Counted from the first letter of the stretch, positions 2,296-40,233 are shown. The stretch is 64,000 nucleotides of DNA from Chaetodon trifascialis (GCF_039877785.1 NC_092066.1:5379152-5443151); one strand, 5' to 3'. The notes: generated by a model from the letters alone, not told the origin. A program made the numbers and translations.

Positions 2296-2490
2296 AGAGG
2301 CTCTTTAACTTCACATCTTAGTGTGTGAAAACAACAGTATCGACACGAGACGGACGGAAAGTCTCACTGGGGACTGTAACGTCTCAACAAAACAAAACAA
2401 ATCAACAACAACAGCAAACAATAACAACAACAGCGGAATAACCAAACACTAACGCCAAACAAGGGCGGACTGAGAGAAGCTAACTCAATG
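2296..2490 (+). CDS. 5' exon of ApoL-repeat gene 1: mostly 5'UTR, with the initiator ATG at 2488-2490 immediately followed by a GT donor (atg|gtgagt), phase 0
   Basis: The acceptor is ttttttcag|agaggc at 2295. The sequence ...gctaactcaATG|GTGAGTtaac follows the classic pattern of a first coding exon ending right after the ATG. Phase 0 joins cleanly to exon 4601-4672 (QKAALFGGMFKRSS...). An alternative in-frame ATG lies at 4595-4597. Confidence 0.45.
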
Positions 2491-4600
2491 GTGAGTTAAC
2501 GTTTAAAAACTAGCTAACGTTCGTGTTTAAAGCGCACCATAAACCGAACATGTCGGTTAATGTCTGTGAAAGTAACCGCGAATGACGATGGAAATGCACT
2601 GTTTGACAGGAGCGATACGACAACCTGGATCTGGACTTGGAGTGTGAAGGAGGAGGCGTAGCTGTGAGTGTTATCTGTCCGTTGTCTTTCATGAAAGTTT
2701 AGCCAGCTAACGTTAGTGTTGAAAGGTTTTTTGCGGAGCTGCATTTACAGTTTGCTGAAGTCAGTTAACGACCGTGGTTTACCGAATTTAACCGACCTAA
2801 CCTCAATCTGTGCGACGGAAACTCTCCATGTACAAACACACACTTACACAGTGAAGTCCAAAAGTATGTGCTCATGTTTTCTGTTGTGCTGGCGCATCGG
2901 ATTTAACATCTAACAATGACTATGAGGCTGAAAAGCTGACTCTCAGCTTTGAGTGCTCAGTGTACAAACCGTAGCTCTGTCATCACGGCCGGATTAACCG
3001 ACCAGCATGGTCCAGGGCGAAAATGTGCCACTGGGCCCCCATTAACCCCCCACACCAGATTAGATATATTAATATGAATATCCACAGCACAAGACTGCAT
3101 CAAGTTTGAGAAATTAAAGAATGAGGCTGGTTGCATAGGTTGTTTGCTGTAACTTGATGTTGGATTCAAATGGAGGGCAGGAAGTGAAAACCAATGGACG
3201 AGATGGAGGAAAGTTCGTAATCTGCTAGTTTAGAAGAAATTACAAGAGAAAACTGTACAGAAAATCAGAGAAAATGTTGGATGTGACCTTTATGTTATGA
3301 GGCAGCTGCTATTGAGGCAGTAGATATAACAACTACCTGCTCATTCAGATGTCATTCTGCTCTAGAAACCAAATCAAAGTATTCAAAAGTATGGAGGCAA
3401 ACAACTTTCTTGTTAGCCGTTGGGTGCACAACCTTGGTACCTAGGCTTTCCCCCTTATGGACAACAACTTTTGGTACTCGATCAAGCTCCTTATGGTGTC
3501 TCGGTTTGATCAAATTGACCAACCATAATCACAACACAGCTGCATTTTGAGTGTGTGTTGAAGTGCCTCCTATGCAGAAAATCACTTCCTGCCCTCCATC
3601 TGCAACTCGTGCCACAAAAAAGAGTGATGTGACGATATTTCAACAAATCCCATGAAAAGACCAAAACCAACAACGTGTTGCTACTGACTGACAAAAATCT
3701 TTAAACACAACTTACAAATATATAATTCGTTTTTTAATATAGGCTCAGAAATTTTCTAAAGCAGCTGGGCACTGCAGTTTTTAAAAAACGTTACTTAAGT
3801 TTGGGACTACTTTTAGCAGTGGATTAACACACTTTTTGTGTCAAGTGAGTATTTCCAGCTGCAGAGCAGTTTATGATGGACTGAGTCAAAATAGACTGAA
3901 GTATTCAAGTTATTGTGCTGAAGGAACATGTGCGTATTATTGAAGAGTCTTTCAGTTCAATGATCACAAACCAGTTGACTCATAACACACCTGAAGCTGC
4001 TGGAGCCCTTGAGTCCCTCCTACTTTATTTAATACTGTTATGTAAAGTACAGAAAGGGGTTTGTGTTCTACACTGTTTATTAGTTAAACCTGAAATAAAG
4101 CATCACAGTTTCTGTTTATATCAAGACGATCATCAAGAAACTTACAGACCTTTTTGTTTACAGCTGCATCCTTAGAAAAGGCTTTAAATGTTAAGCTAAA
4201 AAAGGCTAAAATCTGTTTACTGTCCAGTCTGATGTATTGTAGTGCTCCAGTCGTTCTTTAACAGGCTGATCAGTATTATGGTCAGTTTTCACAGAGCTAG
4301 AAACGCACCAATCACCCTAAATTTACTGTCGTCAAGGTTTCAAGTCCAGACATGAAACCAGCTTCAAGTCCGGACTTGAAACCTGGACCGTGGGATGTGA
4401 ACCAGTGAATGCGTCCGCTCATCCATAGAGTCATCTGTGAATTGTCGGTCATTCGAAGCATCTTTTCCGTGCAGGGGCAGATTGATGCTGCTGACTCACA
4501 GGTCATGGCAGCGAACGTTCACCCTCTGTTACTCGCTCACTCTCACTGAAGCTGCTCTGTCAGAACTGAATTAGTTTGCTCTTTTTCGCCCCTCATGCAG

Positions 4601-7600
4601 CAAAAAGCGGCGTTATTCGGTGGAATGTTTAAAAGATCCTCTAAGTCTGCAGAACCGTCTGTCCAAACTCAGGTGAGGTCATAGATTGTTTTTTAACTTC
4701 AATCATCAAATTCATTTGATAAGTTAATACACTGATCGAATGTCTCTTGAATGTTTCATTTAAGATGCTCACCTGTTCTCATGCTGTTCATGTGTGCAGT
4801 AATAAAATCACAATAACTGCTGCTTTGTGAAATCTGCAAATGATGGAATTACAGCATCTGATTCTGCGTCTGCTCACAAAGTTTGTGTGTTGATGTTACA
4901 GGACAGTTTATCAGCCAGCAGTGAACTTTCAAAGAGCAGCGACAGTCTGACTGACAACAGCGCCAAGGTGAGGCTCAGGAAACAGTCCTGGAAATTTAAT
5001 TTTTCTTTTCAAACTTTTTTTCTGGCCATCAGTAACCAAACTGAGGAGCTTTCATTGTGCTATGAATAATGGCAGTGTTTTTTAGCTTATAGACGGACGG
5101 ACTTATTTATTGATATTTCAGGAGAAAGGAGGCGTGTTCAAAGGAATGTTTAAGAAGACGACCAAAGCTGGCAAAGAGGGCCAACCGCAGGTGGGTAGTG
5201 AAATCATTAGTCGATTAATCAATCAGTTGATCAGCGAAAGATCAGTCAAGAGAAAGAAAAATGGGTCTCAGGTTGCCTTTATTTTGACAAATTTTTCATC
5301 ATTTTATTTTCATGTATTATTTATTTACCTTTATTACTCTGTATTTCTGAGTTTATGCTACTGAAAAATCTTTTGTAATCACTTGAATCTGTATTGTACC
5401 CATCAACAAAAATGGGAAGACGTAAAAGAAAAGTGATGGTCATAAAACAATGAAATATTTAAATATGTGTCTCCATAGTTGTTTTGAAATTCACAGATGA
5501 GATTCTAAAGCTTTTCAATCCTTTACAGGACAACCTGTCATTACCGAATCCTGAGCTGTCTGTCAGTACTGACAGTTTAACAGACAACAAGTCGTCAAAG
5601 GTGAGTTTACGTTCTGCTCTGTGAGATTTTTGGTTTTCTCACGTCAGTCTTTGAAAGTGAACCTTTTGTCTGCAGGAAAAGTCAGGCGTGTTCAGTGGGA
5701 TGCTCAAACGATCTCCTAAACCAGGACACGCCCGGAGGCCTTCACAGGTGAACCATTGATCTGCTATCTGCTGTCTGCTGTCAAAGATATGTCCAGAGAG
5801 TAAATCATCATGACATGTAAACTGTTGTGTTATTTCCTGACTGATCATCATGTGTTTCAGGATCTTTTGGAGAACGAGTTCACAGGCAGCAATGACAGTC
5901 CGTCTGAAAACACCACAACTAAAGTGAGTCTCATCAGCCAAACCAGTTTTTTAAATGCAAAAACATTCAAAAACACAAACAACTGGAAACAAATACAAAC
6001 GACGCTCACAAGCCTGTGATGCTGCTGGAGGCAGTTTGTTCTTAACTGTGATTTTAAAGCATTTTAAGCACTTTTTTTTTTTACTCTAAATGACCACAGA
6101 GCTCTTCCTTAGTGTTGACCAGCGACACATGTTGGTGATTCTGAATTGATTTAACCTCCAGTGGTTGTGTAGACCTCGACTCAGTGAATGGTGAGTTTGG
6201 GAAGGGTGTGATTTGTTTTTGTGGCTGTTTGGAAGCTGAACCTGCCTGCATCAGCAGTTTGGATGAGGTGCTGGCCAGCGTGTGAAGCACCAAATCCCCG
6301 TCTGTCCATCTGACAGCTGCATCGGTTCAATAGACAGAACAAAAGGTTTTATTTTCCGTTTCATTTCAGGGAACGTATAAGCAACTAATATGTGACTTTT
6401 TATTTTTCAGGAGTCAGGAGGGATGTTCAGCGGGATGTTTAAAAAATCCTCAAAGCCACTTGGAGCGAGGACACAGTCTCAGGTGAGAACTGCGCGTCTC
6501 ACTTTTACCTGTGTCACATTATTAATCGGTAACGAGTGTTTGTCTCTTGCCTTCAGGATGAGTTGTGGGCACCCTGCGAGCTCTCAGGCAGCAGCGACAA
6601 TCTCTCTGCAAACAGCAACACTAAGGTGGGTTGTGACAGGCAGCTGCTCATCTCCATATTCAGCCGCTGTGACTAACACTTGCTCCCTGTTTTCAGTCTA
6701 AGCTGATGGTACAGTCACATCACACCTCTGTCCTGCATGTATTTGCTCCATTGCTCATTCACTTCATCTAAAATCTGTGTTCAAGCATGCGTTTCTTGTT
6801 TTAGTGCAGCTTCCACACAGCCGCCTGTCAGTTTGCATCTACTGGTGTGAACACTGATGCACTTTGCTTTGAAACAGGAAAGTCATCATTCTTCCATATT
6901 TATTGATCAACCACATGACGATTGTGACATCACATCCTGTTTCAGGGCTGAGCGGTGTCACTGACCTGTGGGATAATGTGACTGTACCTTAATGCTGTTT
7001 GTATAGAGCTCAGCTCATTATATGCAGCGTCTGGGAAAGTGTGTTTCTGTGTTTGTTCTTGTGTGTGTTGGAAGGGCGAGGCAAACCTGCAAGTGTTAGC
7101 GTTTCAGAGGAGGCTACAAGCGGCTGAGTGAAGGGCGTACCGATCCATCGGACATTTGAAACCTAACTTCCTCCATTATGGGCAGAATTTCACAAAACCG
7201 TTCCATGTGACTTTCTTTTTTCCAGGAGTCAGGAGGGATGTTCAGTGGGATGTTTAAGAAATCCCCAAAGCCTTTCGGAGCGAGGACGCAGTCTCAGGTG
7301 AGAGCTCTGCACCTCATTTGTCTCACATATACCTGCGTTAGCTTATTAGGAGATGAAGGTAATAATCAGACGGGGATGTTTGCATCTCGCCTTCAGGATG
7401 ATTTGTCTGCACCTGGCGAGCTCTCAGGCAGCAGCGACAATCTTTCCGTGAACAGCAACACTAAGGTGAGGTCGTGAAAGCGGAGGAATTCCTTACTGAA
7501 CTCCTCCATTTTGGGCCAAATTTCCTTAAACCGCTTTGATGTAACTTTTGTTCCAGGAGGCAGGAGGGATTTTCAGTGGCATGTTTAAAAAAACCCCCAA

Positions 7601-8496
7601 ACCCTTTGGAGCAAGGACGCAGTCTCAGGTGAGAGTCATGGAGTATTGCTGCATCTTACAAATCTCACCGTTAAACCGTCTTACTACAAAGCAATTCAGC
7701 AGGATTAATGTTAATTACTCTGCATTTGTTTCTCGCCTTCAGGATGATTTGTCTGAACCCAGCGAGCTCTCAGGCAGCAACGATAATCTGTCTGAGAATA
7801 ACAACACGAAGGTGAGGTTTCTTAAAGCCAGCCACTGATTCTGCAGCATTAACCATGAGTAGTAAATGAGTGAATGTAGTGATTTGACATGTTGGCTTCA
7901 TATTATTTTCTCAGGAGAAAGGAGGAATCTTTAGTGGTGTGTTCAAAAAAAAAGGTGCCAAATCTCAGTCTCAGGTAAGACGGCTAAGTTTTTCAGACAG
8001 CTAACGAGTGTAAACAAACTGCCAGTCCGCCATTGTTGTTGTTGTTGTTGTTTTAGGCTCATTATACAAAGCAACAATGGGCATGCACAGACTGAGGTGA
8101 TGACACCATTGTTTCCCAGACACTCTATTTTACCTGTCCATGCACGCCTGCTCCTTTCTGCAAACAAAAACATGAAAGATAATCACATAAAAATCAAACA
8201 TGGCACCTTTAACGCTTGTTAAATGTTCGGTGTTTCGGTTGTTTTCTAGTTAACAGTTGCTCCATTTAATTTCTCACCTTTCTTGCTAATAGTCACCCAC
8301 AGTCTGCTTTGCTCCAGTGTCTGCAGTTCTTAAGTGAAATGTTGACATTTCACCTCGAAGTGAAGCTTCTGAGCGTCCTTTTTCGTCTTGGCTGTTGCTT
8401 TCTGACTGTGCGCTGTGTCCCTCTGTTCAGGATGATTTGTCCGTGGGTGGAGATCTCTCTGCCAGCAGCGACAGTCTCATAGAGAAGCCTTCAAAG
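4601..8496 (+). CDS. ApoL-repeat gene 1, N-terminal exon-pair repeat array: 14 short phase-0 exons in strict alternation of type A (basic, GMFKK-xPK) and type B (acidic, SSDSLSEN)
   Basis: Every exon has an AG acceptor and a GT donor, a length that is a multiple of 3, and no stop codon.
- 4601-4672: QKAALFGGMFKRSSKSAEPSVQTQ
- 4902-4967: DSLSASSELSKSSDSLTDNSAK
- 5122-5190: EKGGVFKGMFKKTTKAGKEGQPQ
- 5529-5600: DNLSLPNPELSVSTDSLTDNKSSK
- 5676-5747: EKSGVFSGMLKRSPKPGHARRPSQ
- 5861-5923: DLLENEFTGSNDSPSENTTTK
- 6411-6482: ESGGMFSGMFKKSSKPLGARTQSQ
- 6557-6625: DELWAPCELSGSSDNLSANSNTK
- 7226-7297: ESGGMFSGMFKKSPKPFGARTQSQ
- 7397-7465: DDLSAPGELSGSSDNLSVNSNTK
- 7557-7628: EAGGIFSGMFKKTPKPFGARTQSQ
- 7743-7811: DDLSEPSELSGSNDNLSENNNTK
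- 7915-7974: EKGGIFSGVFKKKGAKSQSQ
- 8431-8496: DDLSVGGDLSASSDSLIEKPSK. Confidence 0.75.
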
Positions 8497-8616
8497 GTGT
8501 GAGACGACGCTCACCGCACTGCACTCCTCTCGTCACGCATCACAGAAACTACTTTACACTGTTGGTCATGTTCTGAGATTAATGACATGCTGCTCATGTG
8601 TAATGTGTTGTAGCAG

Positions 8617-10459
8617 GATAAGGAAAAGGCTGAACGCTCGAGTGAGAATACCTCCACCACAGAGAAGCCCAAAGCCAAGCAGGTGAGTGACTGATCTCCT
8701 CTCTGTTGAAGTAAATCTGCTTTATATCAGCTGTGACGTTAAGGTGAGGGTTAGGGCTGTTTTTAAGTGGACTGCAGCAGTGTCTGTGTCATTTCAGAAC
8801 GGTTTCAGTGCGATGATGAAGAGCACCTTCTACACTGACAAACAGGTAAGAGCGGCAGACTGAACTCTTGACTTTTGCTGCATATCATCAGTTCATCTTC
8901 CCCATCACACGCCCCTGAAGCTAAATAGTATCTCAGTCAGAAACGCCTGAAAACAATAAAAGACAATGATGAAGTCGTCCACAGATGATTGTTGTACTAC
9001 TGTTGTTTATATTTTACTGTAAATTTGGCTCCTTGTGCAGGAGAAGAACCCAGATTCTGACCGTGAGGAGATATTGGACAGTGGAGAGGGCCAGCCCAGT
9101 CAGAAACAGGTTTGTGAGGTTTTCTCTCTGGGTTTCAGTCAGCAATTTATTTTCTTTATTGTTTCCCTATTTCATATTTTTTTTGTCTCTCGTTTGTTTT
9201 GTTTCACATTCAGAGCAAACTCGCTGAGACGATGACAAAGCTGAATCCGTTTCGATCCGCAAACAAGGTAAGGAAGGTTTAGATGTGATAGTGCTCGAGA
9301 GATAAGTAAAGTTTCCTTTGATGAATGGATGTATTGAAGGACCGTAACTGTGCAGCCTCTTTTATGTGTCGTTCATAAAATAATGATTTCTGTCTTCTCG
9401 CTGCAGCCGGAGAAGCAGGCGGGCTCAGACGACGAAGATCCACCTGCGAGCAGCGAGAAGTCATCAGGCAACAAACAGGTGCTTTGATATTTGCTCGTTC
9501 CTGTTTCATAAGTTTGAAGTCATGTTTGTTAGGGGTTGAAAAGCCTCTGCACATTGTTTGTCTGTTGTCAATAAAAAAGGAGAAGCTTGCTGCTTCCTCA
9601 CGTGTTGCTCTATTGCCAATCTTGTGAGTGTGTGTGGGCACATGGGTGAAACAGGCAGCGTGAAGTGCTTTGTTCTGCTTTGGTCAGAAAGTGGAGAGTC
9701 ATGAGCCAAAGGTTTCAGATTTACCCACAGGTTCTGTCCGTCGTCCAGCTTTACTTCTCTTATCTTGTGGATTTATTAGCGGACTCATTGTGGCTGATGG
9801 CAGACAAAGCAGATACTTATCTAAAATGCTGAAGCGTTCCCTTAAATCTTTCCACCTCAGAGCACCGTGGTTGGAGCCATGTCCAAACTCAATCTGTTCC
9901 GCTCTGCAAATAAAGTAACTATGCTCTTGATTGTGTTTGGTCGTGGTGGAGGTGTTGGTGAGATAGTCATGATGATGAGGTTTAAGGTGGCAGGAAGTCA
10001 TCATAGTGGTGGTGGGACTGTGGTAACGGTGATGGAGGTGATGTTTGTAGAATCTTTGGTTCGTTTTAATGAGTTGTAATGGTGTGCTGAAGACTTAAAG
10101 GACCATACCTGTGATTTCTCATGCTGCACCCAGTTTACTACAGAACACATGCACTTAACATCACAGCTAAACCCTGTGATGAATGACACAACTCAAACAG
10201 GTTTCAAGAGAGCAAATGGATTTCTGTAGTACATGGATTGTAGTTAAAGAGTTAAACTAGCAAAAATAACTTGGTACGGTCCTTTAATTGCTGCACAAGT
10301 AATCTGATTTTGGTCGATGCTGTTTAAATGCTAACGCTGAAGTCCTTCGTTCAGAAAGACACTGAAGACACAGAGACGCTCAAGGAGGATGGGAAACAAG
10401 TGGAAGAGAAACCGAAAATGGTCAGTCTATTTTTTGCATCACTCATGAGTCATCAGTGA

Positions 10460-10511
<52 letters not shown>

Positions 10512-16587: not shown

Positions 16588-17078
16588 GTAAGTGAATAGA
16601 TGTTCATATTTATATAACAATAATAATGTAATATTTCACTGTCTGGCATCTTTGCTCTCTCAAAGTGGTATTCAGCCATGCAGATTTCACGTGGAGTGTT
16701 GAGATGTAAAATATCTTCCACGACCTCAATATAATTATGAGAATAAAATTTAATTTGTTCTCTCCTCAAATCTCTGAAACGTCGCATTTGAAAAACTATG
16801 ATTGATAAAAACAGTGACTCAGAAACAATGCCAGCACTCCTCTGGATAATCCACAGAACATGCTGTCAGATGGTTCCTTTATTAGAGTAGCTCCAAAGAA
16901 AAAGCTGATGACAGAAGGTTGTGTGGATTATCAGAAAATCAGAACCTGGTTTCTACGGTTTTGTGGGAGTCGAATGGTTAAATGAAACGATCTGCATGCA
17001 GACGTACACCAGTGGTGAGTGAGAGACGATGACGTTTAAAGATAATGAAGGTTATAACTCTCGTCTTGCTTCTCTCAG

Positions 17079-24299: not shown

Positions 24300-24476
24300 C
24301 TAAATAGTACACATACTGTTGAACTGGAATGCAGGCGTCATCGTTACTATCACACCTGTGCTTTTCCTGTCGCGACATGTCGAGCGGTGTGCTGTGAGGA
24401 GCAGTGGGAGCTGCTGAGAGGGTTTCTCTCTTACTTCCATCCTGTCCAGTCGGCTTTTAAAGAGGCGGTCCAAGCG
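24300..24476 (+). other. putative non-coding 5' exon of ApoL-repeat gene 2, with donor c|gtaagc at 24477
   Basis: There is a GTAAGC donor 63 nt upstream of the acceptor of the ATG-containing exon, mirroring the 5' structure of gene 1. The TSS is not identifiable. Confidence 0.25.
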
Positions 24477-24539
24477 TAAGCGCTTCGATCACAAACCTGC
24501 GATCGGTCCTGTTTACGCTGTTTTTTGTCACTCTTACAG

Positions 24540-26441: not shown

Positions 26442-26593
26442 GGTATTTCAGCTGGAGCTGTTATCGGCTGTCACGTAGTGCAGTTCAACCCTGATCCCAG
26501 AAACGACGGGACGCTGTGTAAAACATTTCAGAAGTCGGTGATCAGCGAATCCTTCTAATGCTCAATTATTATTATTCCGTGTGCTTTGTTCAG

Positions 26594-29500: not shown

Positions 29501-32500
29501 TCAAAGGTGAGCTCAGCAGTGTTCGTATGACAGCAGCATCGTCAGTGTTATCACATGCAGCAGTCACTGACCCTGCAAATCTGCCTGATGTCAGCAGGAG
29601 AAAGGAGGATTTTTCAGCGGGATCCTCCGGAAGTCTCCCAAGATTCCCGGAGAGGGAACACCTGGGCAGGTAAAAACGGTTTTGCACATGTTTTAGATGC
29701 TCAGTAACAAAACAAACAGATGGAGTTCGGCGTGTGAGTACATGAAAGATCAGAGTAATCGAAGTGGTCAGCGACGGGGATCTTCACTTTCTGTCAAACC
29801 GCTGAGACTTTGTTGTTTATGTTTGTTTCAGGATAAACAGCAGCTGCAAACGGACCCATCAGACAGTAAAGAGACTGAGAACAACAGCACGAACGTAAGG
29901 AACCCAGAGTGACTGAGTTAAGGAGGAGGCTGACTCTTATATCCACTTTGAACACTCCTCTTTTCCTGCTAACGACTGACTTCAAGCCTGATGTGTTAAT
30001 AGAAGCTGATTTGTAGCTTTACGTATTTCTTTCCTCCTTCCTGTATTTCCTGTACCAATAACTGAAAGAAAGAAAAGGTTTTTGCGAGCGAGTTCTTCTC
30101 TTCTTCACGTTATCAGGAGAAAGGAGGCGTTTTCAGCGGCATGTTCAAGAAATCTCCCAAACTGTCAGAGAAACCCCGACTGGAGGAGGTAAAGATTTAT
30201 AATCTGAGCATCTGCAGAATGGATGAAGTCATCTGAAAAGTAACTAAAGCTCTCAGACAAATGTAGTGGAGTAAGGTTACATTTCTATTACTCTAGTAAA
30301 GTACAAGTACCTTGAATTTTGTACTTAAGTACAGTCTGAATTGTGGCTCACGGCCTCCTCAGCCTTCCTGTCAATCTTCAGTCTTCATACTCTCACAGGT
30401 GCAGTAACTCTTGTGTTGCTCGTGTTGTGTTCAGGGTGCAGAGTCGTTGCACGGCGAGCTCTCCATTAGCTCCGACAGCCTGTCGGAGAACAAGGTGAGT
30501 CCTCATGATGGAAGAATATCTGCAGCTCCGGAGGAGGATCGGCCTCCTGATGCTGAAATGAAAGAAAAGAGGTCGTCGGTTTGCCTCAATGTGTTTTCTG
30601 CTCTCTGTAGGAGAAAGGCAGTTTGTTCAGCGGACTCCGGAGAAAGACTCCCAAAGCAGCCGGAGAGGTACGGCTCCTCAAACACGAGCAGGTGTCATGA
30701 GCATGACCACATGCAGCGCAGCCAGTTCGATGGATGTTCTTGAATGTGCTCACAGGCTGTAACATGAGTCATTGAAGTATTGAAGCATCTTCTGTTTCCT
30801 GGAGCTGCTCTCTGTTTCTGACTGTTTTATTCTCATTTCAGGAGAATCTGTCGGCACAGAAAGATCTGTCAGCCAGTAACGACAGTCTGTCTGAGGCTGC
30901 CAACACCAAGGTCAGCTTTTGCTGTAAAAGGAAGATTTGATTTCATTGTGTACATTTTCTATATTTCTTCATTAATTCGTTGTTGTCTTTCTGATTGTAG
31001 TAGTATGACGTGTCTCCATGTGTTTCCACATATGTTCTATGTCTGGAAGACTGAATTTAACTGTGACGTGTAAAATAAATGACTGTGTTTCAGGAGAAAG
31101 GAGGCGCCTTCAGTGGAATATTCAAGAAGTCGACCAGGCTTGCAGACAGTCCTCCCACAGAGGAAGTAAGACGTCCTCTCTGTTTGTCCCATCCAGTCTT
31201 CCTTTAATATTCTTAAACAGGTGTCAAGTGTCTCATAGGTAGTTCCTTTTAATCTCAGGTGTAAAAGAGCAGTCAGGGAGCTGGGCTCAGTGTTAATGAT
31301 GAAACATACTGTGGCTCTGACTGTTGTCGTCTTTCCTCAGGACAAACAGCCACCAGGCGATGAGCTCTCAGGTAGCAGTGAAGCTCCGTCTGAGAGCAGC
31401 GCCAAGGTGAGTTTTTCTTTTCTGCTTCATTCAGAAAACGGTCCTGAATAACTTCAGCTGAAGAGAGAGCACCCACTGCATGAACATGTGTGTTTCAGGA
31501 AAAAGGAGGAATATTTAGTGGAATATTTAAGAAGGCTCCAAAACCTGCAGACGCTGCTCAACCGGAGGAGGTAAAACTGTCATTTACAGCAAAGTCGACC
31601 TGTTTCATTACCTGTTTGTTGGTGGAAAATTAGGAACAAAAACTCAAGTGATTAGACGTTGGTGCAGATTCAGTATTTGAGCATTTTTTTTAACATTTTC
31701 ACATGATCGTCATGTATCCCATGACCATCTGTTATCAAGATATACTAATGCAAAACCTTTTATCACTTCTCACAGGACGAGTCTCCTGACAAAGAGCTCT
31801 CAACCAGCAGCGAAAATCTATGTGAGAACAAACAGGTGAGCGAGTTTAAGACGATGAATGACTTTGTTTCGTAAATGCTTCACACTCTCGCAGCTCATCC
31901 TGAAGCCTTTTTCTTGTCTGTCTCATCAGGAGAAAGGTGGACGGCTGCTCAGCGGACTCCTGAAAAAGACTCCCAAAGCGTCTGGAGAAAAGACGGAGTC
32001 GCAGGTGAGTTAGTGTTTACAGGACGTGAGATCAGTTTCCAAACCTGCACACAAATTCACCTGTTTCATAAAACATCAACGGGCCTGTTTCAGGACAGAG
32101 AGGCTCAGAGCGAACTGTCGGCCAGCAACGACGACCTGTCTGAGGGCAGCAGCACCAAGGTGAGCAGCGCAGCAACAAAAAGCTCCAGGTACACGTCTTC
32201 TGAGGGAGCGTTCACTGACACCCTGCTCTCTTTCAGGAGAAAAATATCTTTAGCAACATGTTTAAGAAGCCGCAGAAAGCAGCAGAGGGTGCTGCAGCAG
32301 ACAAGGTACCGAGATTTGATTCGGCCCATTAAATCAGCGTTATTTTAGTAAGTGTAGTGGATTTTTACTGTCGTCTGGTCTGAATGCAGGAGCTGGAGGA
32401 GAACAGTAAAGATCGGTTATCAGGCAGCTGTGAAAATCTGTCCGACGCCGCCCCGAAGGTACTTCAGCATCAAAAGAAAGCCTCTTCTTCTCTGTTTTTC

Positions 32501-35423
32501 TGTGTGCTGCTGTCACATGAACACGGACTGAAACCTGATCACAGAGATCAGATTGAGGATGAGATGATATCTGTGTGTTCAACTAGAACAGATTACAAAT
32601 ACAGATAGGCACATCCTCGAGTGTGAGTGCGTCAGTTTGAGTCAGGTTGAGCTGACTTCCTTTGGGAGCGGCAGTAACTTCTGACTCTTGATTCACTCTG
32701 AATGTGTTCACTTGAGAAAATTGACAAAGATCTGTGTTTCAGGAGAAAAAAGGAGGCCTGGCTGGCATCTTCAAAAGGTCATCCAGCATCGATAACCTTT
32801 TCGATGAGGTGAGTGTCGGCCCTGTGCGGCCTCTGTTACGCCTGACGATAACGTCACTTTGACATGAATGAAATGAAACCGTGTTAATGGCTTTTTATCC
32901 CTGGTCTTAAATCAGGAGAAAGGTGGGCTGTTCAGTGGACTTCAGAGGAAGAAAACACCCAAAGCGTCTGGAGATGAAGCAGCTGCAGAGGTGAGTTTTA
33001 TGTTACGCTGCGAGCATCACTGTCTGTGGTTATCGTCCGCATTAATACAACGTCCATTGCTATTTTTTCAGGACAAAGACGACCAGAAGGAGCTGATGGC
33101 AAGTAATGACAGTCTGTCTGAAAACAACACCACCAAGGTACAGTGTTTATTTAAATTCACTTTAACATGCAGCAGACTTTCTCATGTACATAAAAAACAC
33201 ATTTTAGAATATTTTAGTTTGTTTTTGCTTCAGTTTGCACTTAAAAAATGAACATTTCGACATGCCAGTGCTGTTTTGTTTTATTTTTAACTGTGTTCAA
33301 TGTCTGTTTGCAGGAGAAAAGTATTTTCAGTGGCATGTTCAAGAAGACTTCCAAACCAGCAGAGGAGACGACAGCAGACGAGGTACAGTAATGACTCCTT
33401 CACATGAAGTTTATACTTTTGCTCTTAGTTTTGCTCTTTCTTATGTTTTATTTTCGGTTCAGGAATTAAACGCCGGTGATGATCAGATGTTCTCTGCCAG
33501 TTGTGAAAATCTGTTAGAAGCGACCACATCAAAGGTGTGAATGATGTCCGACCATCACACACAGCCTGTTTTTCTCTGTTCTGCCACTTACGATTGATTG
33601 TTTACGTGTGGATGTTTCGTCCGTTTCAGGAGAAAACTGGAGGACTGGCAGGGATCTTCAAGAAGTCTCCCAAGCCGGCTCCACGCTCCATTGTTACTAA
33701 GGTGACCGGAGGAGCTCGCTTTGTTTGATCTCATTTCTGTTTTTTATGGTAAAATTCTTCAGAAATAACCTTCAGCAAGTTGAAAAAAAAGTTCCTTTTT
33801 GTCCTCCAGGATCCGCTGAGCGACTCAAAGGAGCTGTCCGCCAGCTGCGACAGCCTCGTAGAAACCGCTGAGGTGAGACCTGAAGTCTGTGGATGCACTT
33901 GGTGACACTCAGAACAGAAAGCACGAGAAAGAAACGCTCAGCACACTTAAACCCTGCTGGACCAGCACTACCAGGAGACCTCGTGATTTAGACATTAGCC
34001 GCCACATCTGTACTTTATGTGGTGCATTCACACAAAATAAATTAAATCTGTATTTCAGTTTTATACTTTGTCCTCCAAGTACGACGTTGAAGCCCTGCGT
34101 GGCATCAGTGTTTCATTAGACGAGCGTCCATTCAGCAGCCACATTAATGACACAGTTTAGGGTTGTTTTTCCGACTTTCTTCATGTGTTACAAGCATAAA
34201 TACATGTTTGCAGCTCGTTCACATCAAGCAACAGCTGCTTTGCGGCTGTGCTTTAATGCGACAAACTGTTGTTGTCTGTCGTCGCTCATTTCAAATCTCA
34301 GCGAAGCCGCTGCTGCTCAACATGCAGCGAGCTGCGATCAAATCTCGTGTTCGTTCAGTTCAGCTTTAACGTCTGTTTCCTGACAACAGAAAACAGATGT
34401 TAAAAGAGCATTTGAAGCTCAGTTTGCAGAGCCTTCCTCTCTCCTGATCCTCTGCCAGCAAACATATAAGACAGATTGTCGGTGCCATTATTTACAGCTT
34501 TACATTTACTTTTTAACATCCCAGTTGGTTTTTGAGCTGCGACCCAGATGTTTCAGTGTCAGTAGCTGCGTTTCCATTACAGTTGTTCGCAAAATAAAAG
34601 CGATATTTCTGAAATTTCGACAAAGTTCAAGTGCTACTTGCAGGTGTTTCCATTGAACGGTGTTTTGCGAACTAACCGAAATTCTCGTAAATTCTCGGCC
34701 GTCCCGCGAGACTGGAAGATGGCCGAAAGCGTTATGCGTCTCGGTACACTGATCTCAGGAGCTGGTACGGCTGTTGCTGTCCTTATTATGAACAGAAGGC
34801 GGAGGCAACGTATAACTGTTCAAAGGCGAAGCCCTTATGTGTGGCAGCGGCCACGAATAAGGGATTTCTGGGAGAAGATTGTAAATGAGGAATTCACAGA
34901 CGAACTGTGGATACAACATTTTCGGATGACCCGGGCCACGTTCAACGAGCTTTGCGATGTTCTTGAACCTCTTGTGGCACCAGATGCGACATGTAAATGC
35001 GAAAAAAGTGTTTCCATTACACTTTTGCGATACGCTTTTATATTGACACGTCTGAAAAACCACCTCATGAGAGCGTAAAAATGTTTTTGCGATATTTGAG
35101 AGGATTTTCGAAATATAGGTGTTTCCATTACCAGTATTTTATTGCGATATTTAGGTTTTGCGCATTTCTAGGGGTAATGGAAACGCAGCTACTGACTCCA
35201 AACACTGAAATTTATTTCATTTTATTTTGCAGGAGGATCAACTGTTTACTAGTCAGGATAATCTGTTGGAAGCTGTGAGCGCCTCAAAGGTGAGTCTTGT
35301 AGAGTGTATTATTATTCTGTCAGCTCGTTCGGACTTTCAATGAATGCTTCATGTTTTATCTGTTGAACAGGAGAAAAAAGGAGGGTTTGGTGGAATTTTC
35401 AGGAGGACGCCCAAAACACATCA
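26594..35423 (+). CDS. ApoL-repeat gene 2, exon-pair repeat array: about 33 short phase-0 exons, mostly alternating type A (EKGG-FSG-FKK-PK) and type B (D--ELS-S-DSLSEN--K)
   Basis: All exons have AG/GT boundaries and lengths that are multiples of 3.
- 26594-26659: SDPTVLTGMFRRSQKGQTPSFT
- 26980-27057: SYLIDSCAEEEKSDDAPAKQAPGSKP
- 27138-27188: SALKGVMKGLQFKSSPK
- 28120-28224: ASVEPSPGG...EKNAEPKQ (AAG acceptor)
- 28332-28403: DFGGLIAGMFRKTPKEKTPSPALT
- 28484-28552: VSKADSDPEDAEEAEEKTSEQSH
- 28922-28990: EKGGFFSGILKKPNKAPEETPAQ
- 29098-29157: ENLSVSSELSASSDSLSENK
- 29284-29355: EKGGIFSGLFKKSPKAAEAAQTDE
- 29444-29506: DQQSLHDSLSGSNDNLSENSK
- 29598-29669: EKGGFFSGILRKSPKIPGEGTPGQ
- 29832-29894: DKQQLQTDPSDSKETENNSTN
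- 30117-30188: EKGGVFSGMFKKSPKLSEKPRLEE
- 30435-30494: GAESLHGELSISSDSLSENK
- 30611-30667: EKGSLFSGLRRKTPKAAGE
- 30842-30910: ENLSAQKDLSASNDSLSEAANTK
- 31094-31165: EKGGAFSGIFKKSTRLADSPPTEE
- 31341-31406: DKQPPGDELSGSSEAPSESSAK
- 31499-31570: EKGGIFSGIFKKAPKPADAAQPEE
- 31776-31835: DESPDKELSTSSENLCENKQ
- 31930-32004: EKGGRLLSGLLKKTPKASGEKTESQ
- 32094-32159: DREAQSELSASNDDLSEGSSTK
- 32237-32305: EKNIFSNMFKKPQKAAEGAAADK
- 32390-32458: ELEENSKDRLSGSCENLSDAAPK
- 32743-32808: EKKGGLAGIFKRSSSIDNLFDE
- 32916-32990: EKGGLFSGLQRKKTPKASGDEAAAE
- 33072-33137: DKDDQKELMASNDSLSENNTTK
- 33314-33382: EKSIFSGMFKKTSKPAEETTADE
- 33463-33534: ELNAGDDQMFSASCENLLEATTSK
- 33630-33701: EKTGGLAGIFKKSPKPAPRSIVTK
- 33810-33872: DPLSDSKELSASCDSLVETAE
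- 35233-35289: EDQLFTSQDNLLEAVSASK
- 35370-35423: EKKGGFGGIFRRTPKTHQ. Confidence 0.7.
34551..35209. mobile_element. non-autonomous Harbinger (PIF/Harbinger superfamily) miniature DNA transposon in an intron of gene 2, carrying a remnant of the HARBI1-like transposase N-terminus
   Basis: Terminal inverted repeats are tttcagtgtcagtagctgcgtttccattac (34551-34580) and gtaatggaaacgcagctactgactccaaacactgaaa (35173-35209). Sub-terminal gtgtttccatta(c) repeats occur at 34644, 35010, 35121 and 35170. The internal ORF 34638-35078 encodes ...RRRRQRITVQRRSPYVWQRPRIRDFWEKIVNEEFTDELWIQHFRMTRATFNELCDVLEPLVAPDATC..., the conserved N-terminal region of Harbinger/HARBI1-type transposases. The DDE core is absent. 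Confidence 0.65.
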
Positions 35424-35640
35424 GGTACGATTTTCGAGAGCGACAGACCAAGTGAGGGGAGCAGTCACATTCTTGAACACAAATAAAGAACACAGTTAGC
35501 AGCGTGATGTGAAATGATGCTAATAACAGGTATAAATGCAGAGAGCTAGCATTTTGAGTGCATTAACTGATCCCTATAAACTCCTGAATCCTGCACAGCT
35601 GTTAAACATTTATCTCTGCTGCCAATCTCTTCTTCTGCAG

Positions 35641-37342
35641 GAGAGTGAGGACATGGAGGCCCCGGAGGGAGGCGGGCTGAGACGCAGGAGAACCATCAAG
35701 AAAAAAAGACGGGTGAGCTGTCTGTTGTCCACGTTAAACACAGCTCGTCTTCAAAGTCGTGAAAGTTTGGAAAATGCCTCATTTTAACCGTTATGTTTTC
35801 AAGGCTGCAGTAGGAATGTGCTTGAATCTGAATATAGTCCTTGCACAGTGCTTGATTTTCAGCATGATTGTGTTAAAGGTCTTTCCTCATCGACGAACCC
35901 TTCTTCTCTCGGTTTGTTTTCTCAGGTCGTGTCATTCCGAGTCAAGACAACTCTTCCCAAAATACCGAAGATAAGTTTAACTTCTCAGGTAAGTGCTGAG
36001 CTCTTCCAGCTGATCCTTAGTTAACACTCACTGCGCTGTTTTCTACCTCGATCCTGTTCTTTGACTGCGTCACCACAGAGAGAAACATGCCTCATCCGCT
36101 TTTTATTCATATTTCCTTTGTTTTCTGTTTTTAGTATTAACAAGTGCTAAATTTCTCTAATGACATCAATTATTCTCTCCCCCGCCCCTACAGAGTTCAG
36201 ACCAGATGCCCATTATTGAGGAGGCCGTTGAGCTGCAGGACATGAGCCCAGCTCAGGTAACATGATATTATAATGCAGACATTTAGTGATGTTCACAAAC
36301 ATCCAATCAAGACTCAAACTGAGCCCAGATGTTCACTGAACATCTGTGTATGAATGCCTTGTTTCATTAGCCAGTTATTAAAATTTTACAAACGTAACAT
36401 CATATAAGAATCAGCAAATTAAATCCCTTATGCAAAGCTCAGCGCTGCTCATAAGAATCTCAGCCTGCACAAACAGGAACATGCTCAAAGCATTATGGGT
36501 GTTTTTAATAATATTGTTGGTAGTGTGATTCAATTAGTCATTTAATCGTGTATTTCTTTTGTAAAGCACAGCCTTTAGTACCAGTCACCACTCCACACCT
36601 GCAGCCTGTGAAGAATTAGCATTTAGCTTTTAGTTAGCTTAGTTTGAAGTGATCATGAGCGATGTGTGTGACAGTGAACACACTGGAAGAAGAAACCCTT
36701 TGCTGAACGTCAGCTATATAAAACCATACCGACAGTCAGCTGGTGATGGTTTATGGGATGCTGACAGGCACACAGAGGGAAGGGTCGTGGCAGATGCTAA
36801 CTCTTCACACTGAATTGTTTTCCAGGAGAGCTCAGTGGAGGTCCAGCCTGTGGAGATGGCTGCTTACCCCTCTGAAGACGACCCCCATGAACTTCAGGAG
36901 GTGTGTTTCTGGGACACTTTCACACCTGGAGTGTGGTTCATTTAGTCCAGAAAAGAGGCAAAATTAGATACTGTCGCAAACAAATAACTGATAATAAGTA
37001 CTATTAATATTACTACACTGCAAATTAGCTTTTCATTGACAGAGGTGTCTGTTTTCAGGAGAGTGATGAGTTGATGGAGTGGTGGAACACAGTCAAAGGT
37101 TGGTTTGATTGTTTTCACCCTTTGTTTGTTTGGACTGTTTGTTTAGCTGCTCCACCAGGAGAGTTATCACGGATGTCAGTGAAGACACACACAAAAATAA
37201 ACATAATAATTTGAGTGTAAAAGTCATAAAAAGATAAAAGAACCAGACACAAAACACTGTTTTACATATTTGCTTGCTGGTGGTTTCCAGGCTGGGCAGA
37301 GTGGAACGAGACATCCAATTTCCAGGAGGATGAGGAGGAGAT
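35641..37342 (+). CDS. ApoL-repeat gene 2, linker exons between the repeat array and the ApoL domain
   Basis: - 35641-35712: ESEDMEAPEGGGLRRRRTIKKKRR, a basic cluster that looks like a nuclear localisation signal (NLS)
- 35926-35988: VVSFRVKTTLPKIPKISLTSQ
- 36194-36256: SSDQMPIIEEAVELQDMSPAQ
- 36826-36900: ESSVEVQPVEMAAYPSEDDPHELQE
- 37059-37098: ESDELMEWWNTVK, phase 1 out
- 37291-37342: (G)WAEWNETSNFQEDEEE, phase 2 out
The last two are paralogous to gene 1 exons 15963-16002 and 16536-16587, with the same EWWNTV / W-E-- motifs and the same phases. Confidence 0.6.
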
Positions 37343-37541
37343 GTGAGTCTCATTTATGCTTAAAAAGTCTTACATTCATCGTGGTGAACCCTGCAGAAAC
37401 ATGTTGTTCTGTATTTGTCAGCTTTGGGGTTTAAATGTAAATATATTAAGACTCCATGTTTTGCTTTGTTCCTCAAATTTTGAACATTAGAACTTTAAAC
37501 TGCACCTCGTGAGTCTCACGCCTTCACTCGTGTCTCTCCAG

Positions 37542-37956
37542 GGCGCTGGAGCAGGCAGCTGATCGCGTCTACATGGCAGCTCGTCTGTTTGTGCGCCTTT
37601 TCAACCAGCGGGGGGCGTCCTTACAGCATCGCATCCTGGAGCTTTTGGCTCTGGCCGACGCTGCGGATCAGTTCCACAAGAAAACGGTGACGGCTGCGGT
37701 GGGGGGAGGGGTGGCCAGCGTCGCGGGCAGCGTGGCAACCATCACGGGGCTCATCCTGGCGCCGTTCACATTCGGTGCCTCCATCATTGTCATGGCGGTG
37801 GGCATCAGTGTGGCGACGGCGGGCAGCATCGCCTCAGCGACAGCCAATATCACAGATACAGTTCACTCCAACATGGACCGAAAGAAGCTGGAGAAGATGA
37901 TCCAGAGCTACCAGGAGGAGATCAAAGACATCAGAGAGTGTCTGGAGTTCGTGCAG
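37542..37956 (+). CDS. ApoL-repeat gene 2, ApoL domain part 1 (the hydrophobic G/A-rich hairpin region)
   Basis: The acceptor is ctctccag|g at 37541. Phase 2 gives M-ALEQAADRVYMAARLFVRLFNQRGASLQHRILELLALADAADQFHKKTVTAAVGGGVASVAGSVATITGLILAPFTFGASIIVMAVGISVATAGSIASATANITDTVHSNMDRKKLEKMIQSYQEEIKDIRECLEFVQ, and the donor is cag|gtgagg at 37957. The region is collinear with gene 1 residues of the 17079-18021 exon. It overlaps track ORF 37573-37998, whose read-through into the intron hits a stop. Confidence 0.85.
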
Positions 37957-38059
37957 GTGAGGAACCTCAGGTGTTACACATATCCGGTGTTTATGTGAGT
38001 GTGTACTGACAGACAGAGGTCCATCATAGTCAGATATGATCAGATCAGACAGTGAAGTT

Positions 38060-38460
38060 TGGCTCATCTCTCTCTGTGTCTCTTTCCCTCGCGCTCTCTC
38101 TCTCTCTCCCTCTGTGTGTTTCTCTCACTCCCTCTCTCTCTCTGTTTGTGTCTCTCTGTCTGTCTCGTTCTCTCTTGCTTCCCCCCCTTTCTGTGTGTGT
38201 CTCTCTCCCTCCTTCCCTCCCTCCCCCACTGTGTCTCTCTCTCCCTGTGTGTCTACCTCTCTCTTTCTGTGTGTGTGTGTCTCTGTCTCTCCCCCTCTCC
38301 ACCTCCCTCCCTCCCTGTGTCCTTCTCTCCCTGTGTGTCTCTCTCTCCCTCCTTCCCTCCCTCCCTCTCTGTGTCTCTCTCTCTCTTTTTCTGTGTGTGT
38401 CTGTCTCTGTCTCTGTCTCTCCCTCTCCCTCTTCGCCTCCCTCCCCTTGAGGTTTCTGCC
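38060..38460. repeat. TC-rich simple/low-complexity sequence ((CT)n, (CTCC)n and (CTGT)n variants) filling the intron that splits the ApoL domain of gene 2
   Basis: About 400 nt are almost entirely C/T, with interspersed tgtg. This generates spurious long ORFs on both strands (38036-38536 +, 38045-38632 -). Confidence 0.9.
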
Positions 38461-38585
38461 TGTTAAAAGGAAGTTTTTCCTCTCTGTAGATAAAGATTTT
38501 GGGGTCTGTCCCAGCTCTATATGGAAAGTGTCCTGAGACAACTTCTGTAGTGATTTGGTGCTGTATTGTCTCTGTGCGTCTTGTA

Positions 38586-40233
38586 GGCCGGTATGGACAC
38601 CCTGCAGGAGTGGGACTTTGAGAAATACTCACAGAGTGCTGCCAAAAAGGCTCTGAACCACAACCTGAAGCACGTGATGAAGGAGGGCGGCCGTGCCGGA
38701 AAAGCCCTGATGATCAACACCGATAAGCTCATCAGCACTGTGCAGGTTTTGGGCGCTGCAGGAGGCGCCGCCAAAGCCGCCCAGGCCATCAGCGTCACCA
38801 CAGGGGTCATGTCGGCCCTCTTCCTGGCTCTGGATGTTTTCTTCCTCGCCAAAGACTCCCACGAGCTCCGCAAGGGCGCCAAAACTAAGTTTGCCAAAAA
38901 GATCCGGGACGTCTGTAAAGAACTTCAAGACGGCCTCCTGGAGCTGAACAAGGTGAAGACGCAGCTGCAGAAGACCATGGACGGCATAGAGGTGGAGGAG
39001 TACGAGGAGATTGAGGAGGTGGAGGTGGAGGTGGACGAAGATTTAGAGTCGGATCCGAAGAAGCTGGCCGAGTTGGAAAAGGAGCTGGACATCCTGGAGG
39101 AGAAACTGGACAGGAAGGTCGAAGAGGAGCAGAAGAAGAGTAAAGAGATGGAGAAGGAAAACTTGAAAAATAAGACTGAGAAAAAGGAGGAGAAGAGCGT
39201 TAAGGAAAAAGGAGAGCCACAGGAAAAGAAGAAGGAAGAGGAAACGGGAGAAAAAGACGCTAAGAAAGAGGGAAAGAAGGAAAATAAGAAGGGGAACAAA
39301 GGTGAAGAAGAAAGCAAGCTTGAGATCCCTGACATGGAAAAAGAGCAGAAAAATGAGACCCTCAAAGAGGCCAAAGAGGAAGTTTTAAAGGAACAATCTC
39401 AGAAAGGAAAGAAGAAGGACAAAGACACCGAGAACCGAATTACAGCTTCAAAAGAAAAGGACGAGAGCGAGAGAGACACAATGAGAGACAGCGGAGCAAA
39501 TAAAAAGACAGACGAGAAGGGAAAAGAGGGCGTTAAGAGCAGATCAGGTGACTCCAAAAAGGAGGACTGGGGAGGAAAAGCAAGTTCTGAGAGGGTCAAG
39601 ACAGAGAGAGACAGTGAAAGGAGTCAGAGCAGGAGAGAGGAGGAAAGAGTGATGAACAAAGAGAAGGAGGAGGAGAGCGGGAGCACGAGGAGGCACAGCA
39701 GCAGGAGCGACAAAGACAGACCCCACAGGAGTGAAAGAGGGAGCAAACATGATGAGGAAAGAGGCACCAGCAAATACAGCGACAGGACGGAGAGCCGGAG
39801 GATGGAGGAGGAGAGAGGAGTGAGGGACTGGAGAGCTGAGATGGCAAAAAGCAGAGAGGAGAAGAGAGAAAGCAAGGGAGGACAAGAAGCTAAGAGAGAG
39901 ACGGCGAGGGAGGATTCGCATCGGAGTCACGGAGCGGCGTCGAGGAGGGAGCATCCGGAGAGAGAGGAGAGGAGTCACTACAGGAGAGGAGCAGCCCCGC
40001 ATGATGACCAGAGGGAGAGAGACGAGAAACGAGGGAGCAGGATCGAGAGTGCGAGGAGGCAGTTTGAGAGGGCGGAGGAGGAGGAGAGGGCGAAGAGGAG
40101 AGAGGATGGAGAGTGTCAGAGGAGGGATCAGCAGAGGAGAGGAGGTGAGGAGAGAGACAGGGAGCACGGACACAGCCGGCGAGGATCCCGAGCGCGATCC
40201 AGCGTGCTGCTGGAAGACGGACTGTACATTTAG
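38586..40233 (+). CDS. ApoL-repeat gene 2, terminal exon: ApoL domain part 2, then a long K/E-rich and a long R/E/D/S-rich low-complexity tail of about 400 aa, with the stop at 40231-40233
   Basis: The acceptor is cttgtag|gcc at 38585, and phase 0 gives AGMDTLQEWDFEKYSQSAAKKALNHNLKHVMKEGGRAGKALMINTDKLISTVQVLGAAGGAAKAAQAISVTTGVMSALFLALDVFFLAKDSHELRKGAKTKFAKKIRDVCKELQDGLLELNKVKTQLQ... This is homologous to the second half of the gene 1 ApoL exon. The tail continues as EVEEYEEIEEVEVEVDED...KKEEKSVKEKGE...RSDKDRPHRSERGSKHDEERG...RRGSRARSSVLLEDGLYI*. It corresponds to track ORF 38593-40233. An AATAAA lies at about 40532. Confidence 0.85.

Follow-up and report, generated by a model that had tools for sequence, protein, structure and literature searches.

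Between positions 2,296 and 40,233 of a 64,000-nt stretch of Chaetodon trifascialis DNA (NC_092066.1:5379152-5443151; hereafter, the window), arrays of very small exons lie ahead of two regions that encode apolipoprotein-L (ApoL) domains, which raises the questions of whether arrays and domains are spliced into the same products, what kind of proteins these are, and whether they belong to a family already on record. Here, we conclude with high confidence that the interval holds two ordinary, expressed, tandem paralogous protein-coding genes on the + strand, each with one Pfam ApoL domain at its C-terminal side, of which gene 1 is the teleost 'apol1' and gene 2 is of the 'apold1a' type. The genes and their full architecture are already known at the level of sequence databases, and it is the repeat region alone that is uncharacterised in the literature searched.

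A Pfam scan of the open reading frames (ORFs) placed PF05461 on the + strand at 17029-18021 (E 5e-37), 37573-37998 (E 1e-21) and 38593-40233 (E 1e-8). The basic (A) and acidic (B) motifs encoded by the mini-exons were found on the + strand only, confined to two intervals, by a regular-expression scan of all six frames, and tblastn with eight exon peptides, again with matches on the + strand alone, returned 14 significant matches in 4.6-8.5 kb and ~25 in 28.3-35.4 kb. Each of these matches, extended in frame to the nearest AG/GT, gave an exon length that is a multiple of three; since the matches extend to splice-bounded exons in this way, the mini-exon observation is real. The acceptors of the mini-exons comprise a polypyrimidine tract followed by CAG in all but a few cases, and their donors are mostly GTGAG or GTAAG. 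In addition, shuffled proteins contained 0.01-0.06 motif matches, compared with 6-11 observed per gene, and the array motifs are therefore not the product of chance. A bacterial-style ORF listing recovers the terminal exons only and was replaced by splice-aware gene models guided by orthologous proteins, which resolved the two genes into the following parts:

2488..18021, + strand: gene 1, teleost 'apol1', with the RefSeq name 'protein starmaker-like' here; 36 coding exons, 1048 aa, every junction GT..AG
2488..2663, + strand: start of gene 1; exon 2488-2490 is the ATG only, with donor GTGAGT, and the acidic exon 2610-2663 encodes ERYDNLDLDLECEGGGVA
4601..8496, + strand: A/B array of gene 1; 14 phase-0 exons of 60-72 nt in strict A/B alternation
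8617..15576, + strand: linker of gene 1; 17 phase-0 exons of 45-93 nt
15963-16002 (40 nt) and 16536-16587 (52 nt), + strand: non-phase-0 exons of gene 1, encoding DVEDLMEWWNTVE/VWEDTPQDDDMTEKEEA(K)
17079..18021, + strand: terminal exon of gene 1, 943 nt; the entire ApoL domain, with a hydrophobic hairpin without acidic residue, and the C-terminus REYV
24545..40233, + strand: gene 2, teleost 'apold1a' type (zebrafish si:rp71-1g18.13); 47 coding exons, ~1667 aa, every junction GT..AG
24545..28224, + strand: N-terminal exons 1-10 of gene 2; phase 0, with two PxxPPRP motifs
28332..35424, + strand: A/B array of gene 2; 29 phase-0 exons of 54-75 nt, ~15 clearly A-type and 13 B-type
35641..36900, + strand: linker exons of gene 2; GGLRRRRTIKKKRR, VVSFRVKTTLPK... 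and an acidic VQPVEMAAYPSE exon
37059-37098 and 37291-37342, + strand: gene 2 counterparts of the 40- and 52-nt exons, encoding ESDELMEWWNTVK/GWAEWNETSNFQEDEEE
37542-37956 + 38587-40233, + strand: ApoL domain of gene 2 in two exons, followed by a ~400-aa E/K/R-rich tail with the end LLEDGLYI

Gene 1, whose stop codon lies at 18019-18021, contains an uninterrupted series of 32 phase-0 exons (exons 2-33, 45-93 nt, all multiples of 3). In its array, the A exons carry net charges of +3 to +5 and the B exons of -2 to -5. The linker continues in a similar manner, with basic NPF/NLF exons (KLNPFRSANK, HNPFMPR) mostly alternating with acidic SDDE exons, and includes two proline motifs of the PxxPPRP type, of which each gene has two. 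Read exon by exon, net charge alternates through exons 2-16, and on to exon 23 save for the adjacent +1 exons 17 and 18. The terminal exon yielded 128.4 bits against PF05461 (gathering score 25.9 bits), covering profile positions 44-297 of 298.

Gene 2 follows the same plan on a larger scale. Its exons 1-43 are all phase 0 (39-105 nt), and ~17 of them are A-type and ~13 B-type. The N-terminal part contains two degenerate A-like exons (26594-26659 and 27150-27188). Alternation within the array is mostly regular, and exon 28484-28552 is acidic but non-B. When spliced, the protein displayed one continuous PF05461 domain at residues 988-1240 (profile 44-297 of 298, 108.6 bits, E 5e-31), and the Pfam scan of the spliced protein found no domain other than ApoL. 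Gene 1 has no intron at the site where the ApoL domain of gene 2 is split. The C-terminus of gene 2, ..DGLYI, has related ends (GLYI, GLNI, GLDI and QFYI) in some orthologs.

These models agree with much of what an earlier note on this DNA had proposed, namely two same-strand paralogs that each end in a complete ApoL domain, N-terminal arrays of phase-0 mini-exons alternating between basic and acidic, and a gene 1 that runs from the ATG at 2488 to the stop at 18021 with 14 A/B mini-exons and ~1050 aa. For gene 2, the proposed ATG at about 24545 and stop at 40233 stood, while the proposed sizes (~33 mini-exons and ~1900 aa) had to be reduced to ~30 A/B exons and ~1667 aa.

Are the mini-exons and the ApoL domain joined in one transcript? 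Logan contig L001 (SRR27393481, 4159 nt, RNA-type) carries a complete 992-aa ORF in which array, linker and ApoL domain are continuous. An in-frame stop lies upstream of its MERYDNLDLDLECEGGG... N-terminus, a ~1-kb 3' untranslated region follows, and the contig aligns to the window exon by exon from 2609 to 18028. The mini-exons are hence spliced into the ApoL transcript, which contradicts the first of the two outcomes that the earlier note had named as refuting its view. A second contig, L002, is of the gene-2 type and partly spliced, with several B-A-B-A exons joined. The third, L003, contains a spliced array, then runs from exon 10355-10420 collinearly into the next intron, where it stops; it is either a piece of unspliced RNA or an isoform that has the array only.

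Annotated isoforms differ from each other by exact whole exons, and as all array units are phase 0, skipping any of them preserves the reading frame. A finer difference arises at the start of exon 17, where a tandem CAG-CAG (NAGNAG) acceptor at 8614/8617 distinguishes RefSeq isoforms X1 (1002 aa) and X2 (1001 aa) by a single Gln. Exons 12 and 13 (7397-7465, B, and 7557-7628, A) account for the 47 residues that our gene 1 model has in excess of RefSeq X2; both exons are skipped in all of X1-X3. Their frames are intact, their splice sites are canonical, and their counterparts are included in the C. auriga model; the skipping in RefSeq could be real or an artefact of read mapping among near-identical repeats.

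Apart from these 47 residues, gene 1 is identical at 1001/1001 positions to XP_070830722.1 ('protein starmaker-like isoform X2', Chaetodon trifascialis), and is thus already in RefSeq, where the entries of this species for gene 1 also include XP_070830720.1. An exact look-up of the 1048-aa model returned no entry, the deposited isoforms differing by skipped exons. Compared with apolipoprotein L1 isoform X2 of Chaetodon auriga (P0023, 1050 aa), the identity is 96% (1008/1050). More broadly, >100 teleost species have 'apolipoprotein L1 isoform Xn' models that carry array, linker and ApoL domain. A query made of linker and ApoL domain matched 490 proteins at E <=1e-20, of which 120 were listed, and the counts for gene-1 orthologs given here refer to those 120: all are teleost, all contain PF05461, and most have ~900-1140 aa (range 613-1142), with medians of 5 A, 4 B and 4 NPF motifs. 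Their commonest N-terminus is M[EDN]RYDNLDLDLE, and the REYV C-terminus (window 18007-18018), a candidate PDZ-binding sequence, is present in 109/120. The teleost apol1 models in RefSeq and Ensembl therefore resemble gene 1 in their acidic N-terminus, A/B array, NPF/acidic linker, WWNTV motif, ApoL domain and REYV end; they differ in that the C. trifascialis RefSeq isoforms lack exons 12-13, which are intact in the window, and in that naming is inconsistent across species. Most of the 120 bear the name apolipoprotein L1 isoform Xn; other names given to gene-1 orthologs are starmaker-like, dentin sialophosphoprotein, dentin matrix acidic phosphoprotein 1-like, piccolo, titin homolog, neurofilament heavy and RBBP6, and because a single orthogroup receives such unrelated names, the names are evidently driven by composition.

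The relatives of gene 2 go by the names 'apold1a', 'Apolipoprotein L domain containing 1a' or si:rp71-1g18.13, and Osmerus, Sardina, Solea, Oncorhynchus, Takifugu and others have annotated long isoforms of 1300-1703 aa. The alignment with Solea senegalensis P0268 (1627 aa) covers 1517 residues of which 1085 are identical; among the top 25 listed models, the best local alignments mostly show 54-69% identity (range 51-79%), and each of the 47 exons shows some identity to one or more of the annotated long orthologs. Shared with teleost apold1a are the A/B array, RRRTIKKKRRVVSFRVK, VQPVEMAAYP, LMEWWNTVKGW, the ApoL domain and the E/K-rich tail, and the linker motifs recur in the orthologs P0145, P0151, P0153 and P0162. 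In contrast, the zebrafish apold1a isoform P0215 (667 aa) has few degenerate repeats, compared with the ~30 A/B exons and 1667 aa of gene 2.

The array itself appears restricted to teleosts. Concatenated mini-exons of gene 1 retrieved teleost proteins only, among them an Etheostoma model named 'Apolipoprotein L, 1' in which the N-terminus, one A exon, one B exon, linker and ApoL domain are joined. A phmmer search with the array-only protein against 1.84 billion cluster representatives gave 66 matches at E <=1e-3. The named matches that were sampled (20 + 22) are all teleost, and include Elopomorpha, Clupeiformes, Siluriformes, Salmoniformes and Osmeriformes. Absence of the array from non-teleosts is thereby suggested, in line with the lineage restriction that the earlier note had proposed.

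How the two genes relate to each other is evident from their 3' halves. Both contain the 40-nt and 52-nt exons, with the same phases and the invariant LMEWWNTV motif, and their ApoL regions align with a BLOSUM62 local score of 691; owing to these shared exon sizes and phases and the good alignment of the ApoL regions, we regard them as tandem paralogs. Each ApoL domain is identical to the orthologs of the other paralog at ~120 of 265-280 positions, and the L, W, W and V of the WWNTV-region motif are invariant across a 61-sequence alignment of both paralog types. The tandem pairing of both gene types recurs, according to locus tags, in Etheostoma, Tautogolabrus, Megalops and Albula, which suggests that the duplication predates the teleost radiation.

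Hidden Markov models (HMMs) built from the window exons define motif A as E-K-G-G-[VMI]-F(86%)-S-G(92%)-[MIV]-[FL]-[KR]-[KR]-[ST]-P-K-P and motif B as D-D-L-S-x-x-S-E-L(87%)-S(90%)-[AG]-S(98%)-[NS]-D(90%)-[SN]-L(95%)-[ST]-[ED]-N, with conservation peaking at S12 (98%), L16 (95%) and G8 (92%). They identified 1144 A and 959 B instances in ~240/339 collected teleost relatives. No Pfam family covers the A/B repeat array. Tandem duplication of A-B units, each of two exons, enlarged the arrays, and three such units of gene 1 (6390-6628, 7205-7468 and 7536-7814) are duplicates at the DNA level, with similarity running into their introns. In the catfish Neoarius graeffei (P0291, gene-1 type), the array has independently re-expanded with a unit comprising A (SGGVLSGFFRRSPKPAQN), B (DSLSVDGESHSSSADLSEK) and an ETPxVPPRPSEEE exon, which indicates lineage-specific, concerted-looking turnover of the array. 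As candidate readings of the motifs, FFAT (two phenylalanines in an acidic tract) and phospho-FFAT, clathrin box, LC3-interacting region, pLxIS, LC8 TQT and kinesin W-acidic were rejected, as key consensus positions misfit. AlphaFold2 was run on the gene 1 RefSeq isoform P0024 with the 61-sequence alignment, and its models were used solely to show that the array is without predicted structure: secondary structure is lacking over residues 1-638, and the predicted local distance difference test (pLDDT) score is <50 at all but three single residues between 8 and 600. In a model of poor overall quality, this result is consistent with intrinsic disorder of the array.

The ApoL domain is very well conserved. 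In gene 1, it is ~84% identical between Aldrovandia (Elopomorpha) and Chaetodon trifascialis (percomorph), and 85-99% identical among the gene-1 orthologs aligned; the former value argues for strong purifying constraint and not for arms-race evolution. The ApoL family is marked by a Gly/Ala/Val/Thr-rich hydrophobic double-helix hairpin that lies between amphipathic helices. The putative hairpin here comprises a ~55-residue uncharged stretch (ITGGSTSAIGGVATIAGLALAPVTMGTSLIVTAVGLGVATAGG...) with many invariant positions, which AlphaFold2 modelled as coil (pLDDT ~25-30). The hairpin core contains no D/E in gene 1, and a single one in gene 2, at the hairpin end. Such a composition is what has been described for the APOLD1 type, whose hairpin without acidic residues should insert at neutral pH (Pays 2024, PMC11726835), and an APOLD1-like gene has been argued to be ancestral to the APOL family (Müller et al. 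2021, PMC8557400). A PDB sequence search gave only weak, non-significant matches (E 0.12), in which the hairpin (window 17220-17490) is aligned to the hydrophobic hairpin of the ClyA-family pore-forming toxins NheL1 (6tao) and MakE (6w08). By eye, no signal peptide is visible at the N-termini MERYDNLDLDLECEGGG (gene 1) and MEACMMKPEVKKKPKL (gene 2), neither of which has a hydrophobic core. Mammalian APOLD1 (VERGE) thus shares with the fish proteins an ApoL-type domain, the lack of an evident signal peptide and a hairpin essentially free of acidic residues, while it lacks their A/B array, NPF linker and E/K tail; the human protein is short, at ~279 aa. Human APOL1-6 belong to the same Pfam family, PF05461, but are short single-domain proteins and represent primate- or placental-specific expansions (PMC8557400). 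Human APOL1 is secreted, and its hairpin contains acidic residues that are linked to pH gating (PMC11726835).

What could such a protein do? Taken as a whole, the mechanism that we propose, in which an ApoL hairpin would serve as membrane anchor for a multivalent, charge-patterned scaffold tail, is tentative, and we hold it to be somewhat less probable than its negation. At neutral pH, the hairpin would hold the protein in a membrane that faces the cytoplasm, in line with what has been proposed for mammalian APOLD1, and the N-terminal tail would act as the scaffold. Within this tail, motif A (G-G-phi-F-S-G-phi-F-K-K-S/T-P-K-P) may attach to acidic membranes by way of Phe and Lys, in the manner of the MARCKS effector domain, which is a basic-hydrophobic segment that binds acidic membranes. 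The analogy is one of working only: both cluster Lys/Arg and Phe in an unstructured segment beside phosphorylatable Ser, whereas there is no homology, and motif A occurs in 7-17 copies with acidic serine clusters between them. For motif B (E-L-S-x-S-x-D-S-L-S-E), we propose a cluster of CK2-type phosphoserines, with S15 (E at +3) and S12 (primed by phospho-S15) as putative sites, which would neutralise or mask the adjacent A units, and a second phospho-switch could be provided by the S/T-P site that closes the A core. The NPF, PxxPPRP and C-terminal REYV motifs of gene 1 might recruit EH-, SH3- and PDZ-domain partners, respectively, and exon skipping would set the number of units and hence the valency.

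The exon organisation has precedents in tropoelastin, titin PEVK and the fibrillar collagens, in which short symmetric exons each encode one module and are subject to exon duplication and cassette splicing. As in these genes, alternating exon types encode alternating modules, and duplication of exons lengthens the arrays. The likeness does not extend to sequence or function, those proteins being extracellular or sarcomeric elastic elements. A bolder version of our proposal, which we consider possible but still more doubtful, is that the array is a teleost-specific, splice-tunable, phospho-regulated, multivalent membrane-binding polyampholyte on an ancestral APOLD1-like anchor, possibly forming membrane-associated condensates or scaffolds. 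If so, the published zebrafish 'apol1' experiments, meant to model human APOL1 kidney disease, would have relied on a gene model that is truncated and whose full product is nearer to APOLD1 than APOL1. In one study, zebrafish apol1 is defined as a 2.6-kb locus (NP_001025309.1) whose product is 38% identical to human APOL1 (PMC4492502), and its knockdown is reported to disturb podocytes and filtration (PMC4492502 and PMC4854397). The passages of these two papers that deal with zebrafish apol1 treat a short protein and do not mention an N-terminal repeat region. The names 'apold1a', 'apold1b' and 'rp71-1g18.13' appear in no open-access paper searched, and a paper describing the A/B repeat array was not found in the same open-access literature.

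Several other explanations could account for parts of these data. The array and the ApoL domain might at least partly be separate products, as a result of an alternative 3' end, a retained intron or a separate gene, and we judge this to be unlikely while granting it the most weight among the rivals. It draws on the array-only models of Tautogolabrus (LKV04_009016, 481 aa) and Etheostoma (FQN60_016627), on Pseudoliparis isoform X3, which ends just before the ApoL domain, and on L003, which reads from exon 10355-10420 into the intron before stopping. However, L003 lacks a poly(A) tail and may be just a fragment that was not spliced, and the split models stem from ab initio pipelines. Against separate products stand, above all, the mRNA-like L001, in which N-terminus, array, linker and ApoL domain are continuous, and the >100 Gnomon/Ensembl models that join array and ApoL domain. 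That the locus encodes a previously undescribed protein family or architecture, as the earlier note had suspected, is improbable. In its favour, the array has no Pfam model, the gene-2 names are missing from the open-access papers searched, and the zebrafish apol1 papers, in their accessible passages, deal with a 2.6-kb locus and a short protein. Nevertheless, identical or orthologous full-length proteins exist in RefSeq and UniProt for this and >100 other species; with XP_070830720.1 and XP_070830722.1, the apolipoprotein L1 models of >100 species and apold1a entries of up to 1703 aa, the suggestion that no described or annotated family has this architecture did not hold, a database match of this kind being the second of the outcomes that the earlier note had named as refuting its view.

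A rapidly evolving, immune-induced pore-forming effector comparable to primate APOL1/APOL3, with the array used for pathogen targeting, would fit the Pfam ApoL membership, the lineage-specific expansion of the array and the faint, non-significant similarity between the hairpin and ClyA-family toxins (E 0.12). Yet the identity of the gene 1 ApoL domain between Aldrovandia and a percomorph (84%) and among aligned orthologs (85-99%) points to purifying constraint, the hairpin lacks the acidic residues that are tied to pH-gated pore activity in APOL1 (PMC11726835), and the published zebrafish phenotypes are renal and structural, which renders such a role very improbable and leaves the immune hint of the earlier note without support. 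A secreted acidic matrix phosphoprotein of the starmaker/dentin sialophosphoprotein kind (secretory calcium-binding phosphoproteins, SCPP) can hardly be credited at all: the source names starmaker-like, dentin sialophosphoprotein and dentin matrix acidic phosphoprotein 1-like and the Ser/Asp/Glu-rich repeats from small exons recall that group, but half of the repeats are basic and the charge alternates from exon to exon, the C-terminus is an ApoL hairpin domain, the names follow composition (with piccolo, titin homolog, neurofilament heavy and RBBP6 in the same orthogroup), and an N-terminal hydrophobic signal sequence was not seen on direct reading. The N-termini, judged by eye, likewise led us to reject a secreted APOL1-type trypanolytic/high-density-lipoprotein apolipoprotein, which would have an N-terminal signal peptide; that none is evident in either gene had also been stated in the earlier note.

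We therefore retain the reading of two expressed, array-bearing ApoL paralogs with a possible scaffold role, against which the following points should be weighed. The transcript support consists of Logan contigs L001-L003 aligned to the window and not of RNA read directly from C. trifascialis. Array-only products without ApoL domain exist in some annotations and in one contig (P0001, P0003 and L003), and the tail may therefore also act unanchored. For gene 2, an exact look-up of the 1667-aa model found no database entry, and its weakest exon, 29832-29894, has <=38% identity to any annotated long ortholog. The APOLD1 affinity of both genes is suggested by source annotation names and hairpin composition, and membrane binding, phosphorylation and partner binding are all predicted from sequence motifs. 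Finally, both AlphaFold2 models are of low confidence, the ApoL domain included (mean pLDDT 41.4 and 41.5).

Two further features lie in introns of gene 2:

38067..38432, no strand assigned: TC-rich low-complexity tract (Tandem Repeats Finder) in the intron that splits the ApoL domain of gene 2
34638..35078, + strand: ORF in a gene 2 intron, outside the gene product; 146 aa, ..FWEKIVNEEFTDELWIQHFRMTRATFNELCDVLEP.., no Pfam match

The TC-rich tract gives rise to long spurious ORFs on both strands, and the ORF at 34638-35078 looks like part of a transposase, resembling the N-terminus of the HARBI1/PIF type. Microsatellites of the (CA)n / (TG)n type are located at 10461-10508, inside an intron of gene 1, and at 42669-43027, downstream of gene 2. 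The only neighbouring gene identified is a minus-strand RNA recognition motif (RRM) gene at 55900-57750, whose ORF 57370-57735 matches Pfam RRM_1 (E 8e-14); its N-terminus and ORF 55912-56496 resemble hnRNP C / RALY. On the + strand, ORF 401-925 (174 aa, no Pfam match) carries what we assume to be a motif typical of vertebrate retroelement ORFs, and ORF 48720-48980 (..CGVTKLCVATPDGCDPTGNTSCLFLSV..VELRGDSMGYVAMGL..), which has no Pfam match alone, may be an exon of a downstream gene. In Chanos, the apold1a model P0173 includes a fused DOMON domain (PF03351), a hint that the neighbour may be of the DOMON type. Overall, Pfam scans of the flanking and intronic ORFs 401-925, 34638-35078, 46960-47391, 48720-48980, 48758-49165, 52388-52732 and 55912-56496 returned no match.

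Taken together, for a conserved teleost protein of ~1000-1700 aa, with a patterned, disordered array over two-thirds of its length, no Pfam model or paper was found. It is spread over about twenty composition-driven RefSeq names, and a curated family and name would tidy the annotation. The matter may extend to disease modelling, since nephropathy studies have used zebrafish apol1 in place of human APOL1 and treat it, in the passages available, as a short protein from a 2.6-kb locus (PMC4492502). The teleost apol1 models retrieved here, among which the zebrafish gene-1 ortholog was not included, are far larger and contain NPF, proline-rich and putative PDZ-ligand motifs together with an APOLD1-like hairpin. 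If zebrafish apol1 is also long, this would bear on how the knockdown and rescue experiments are read.

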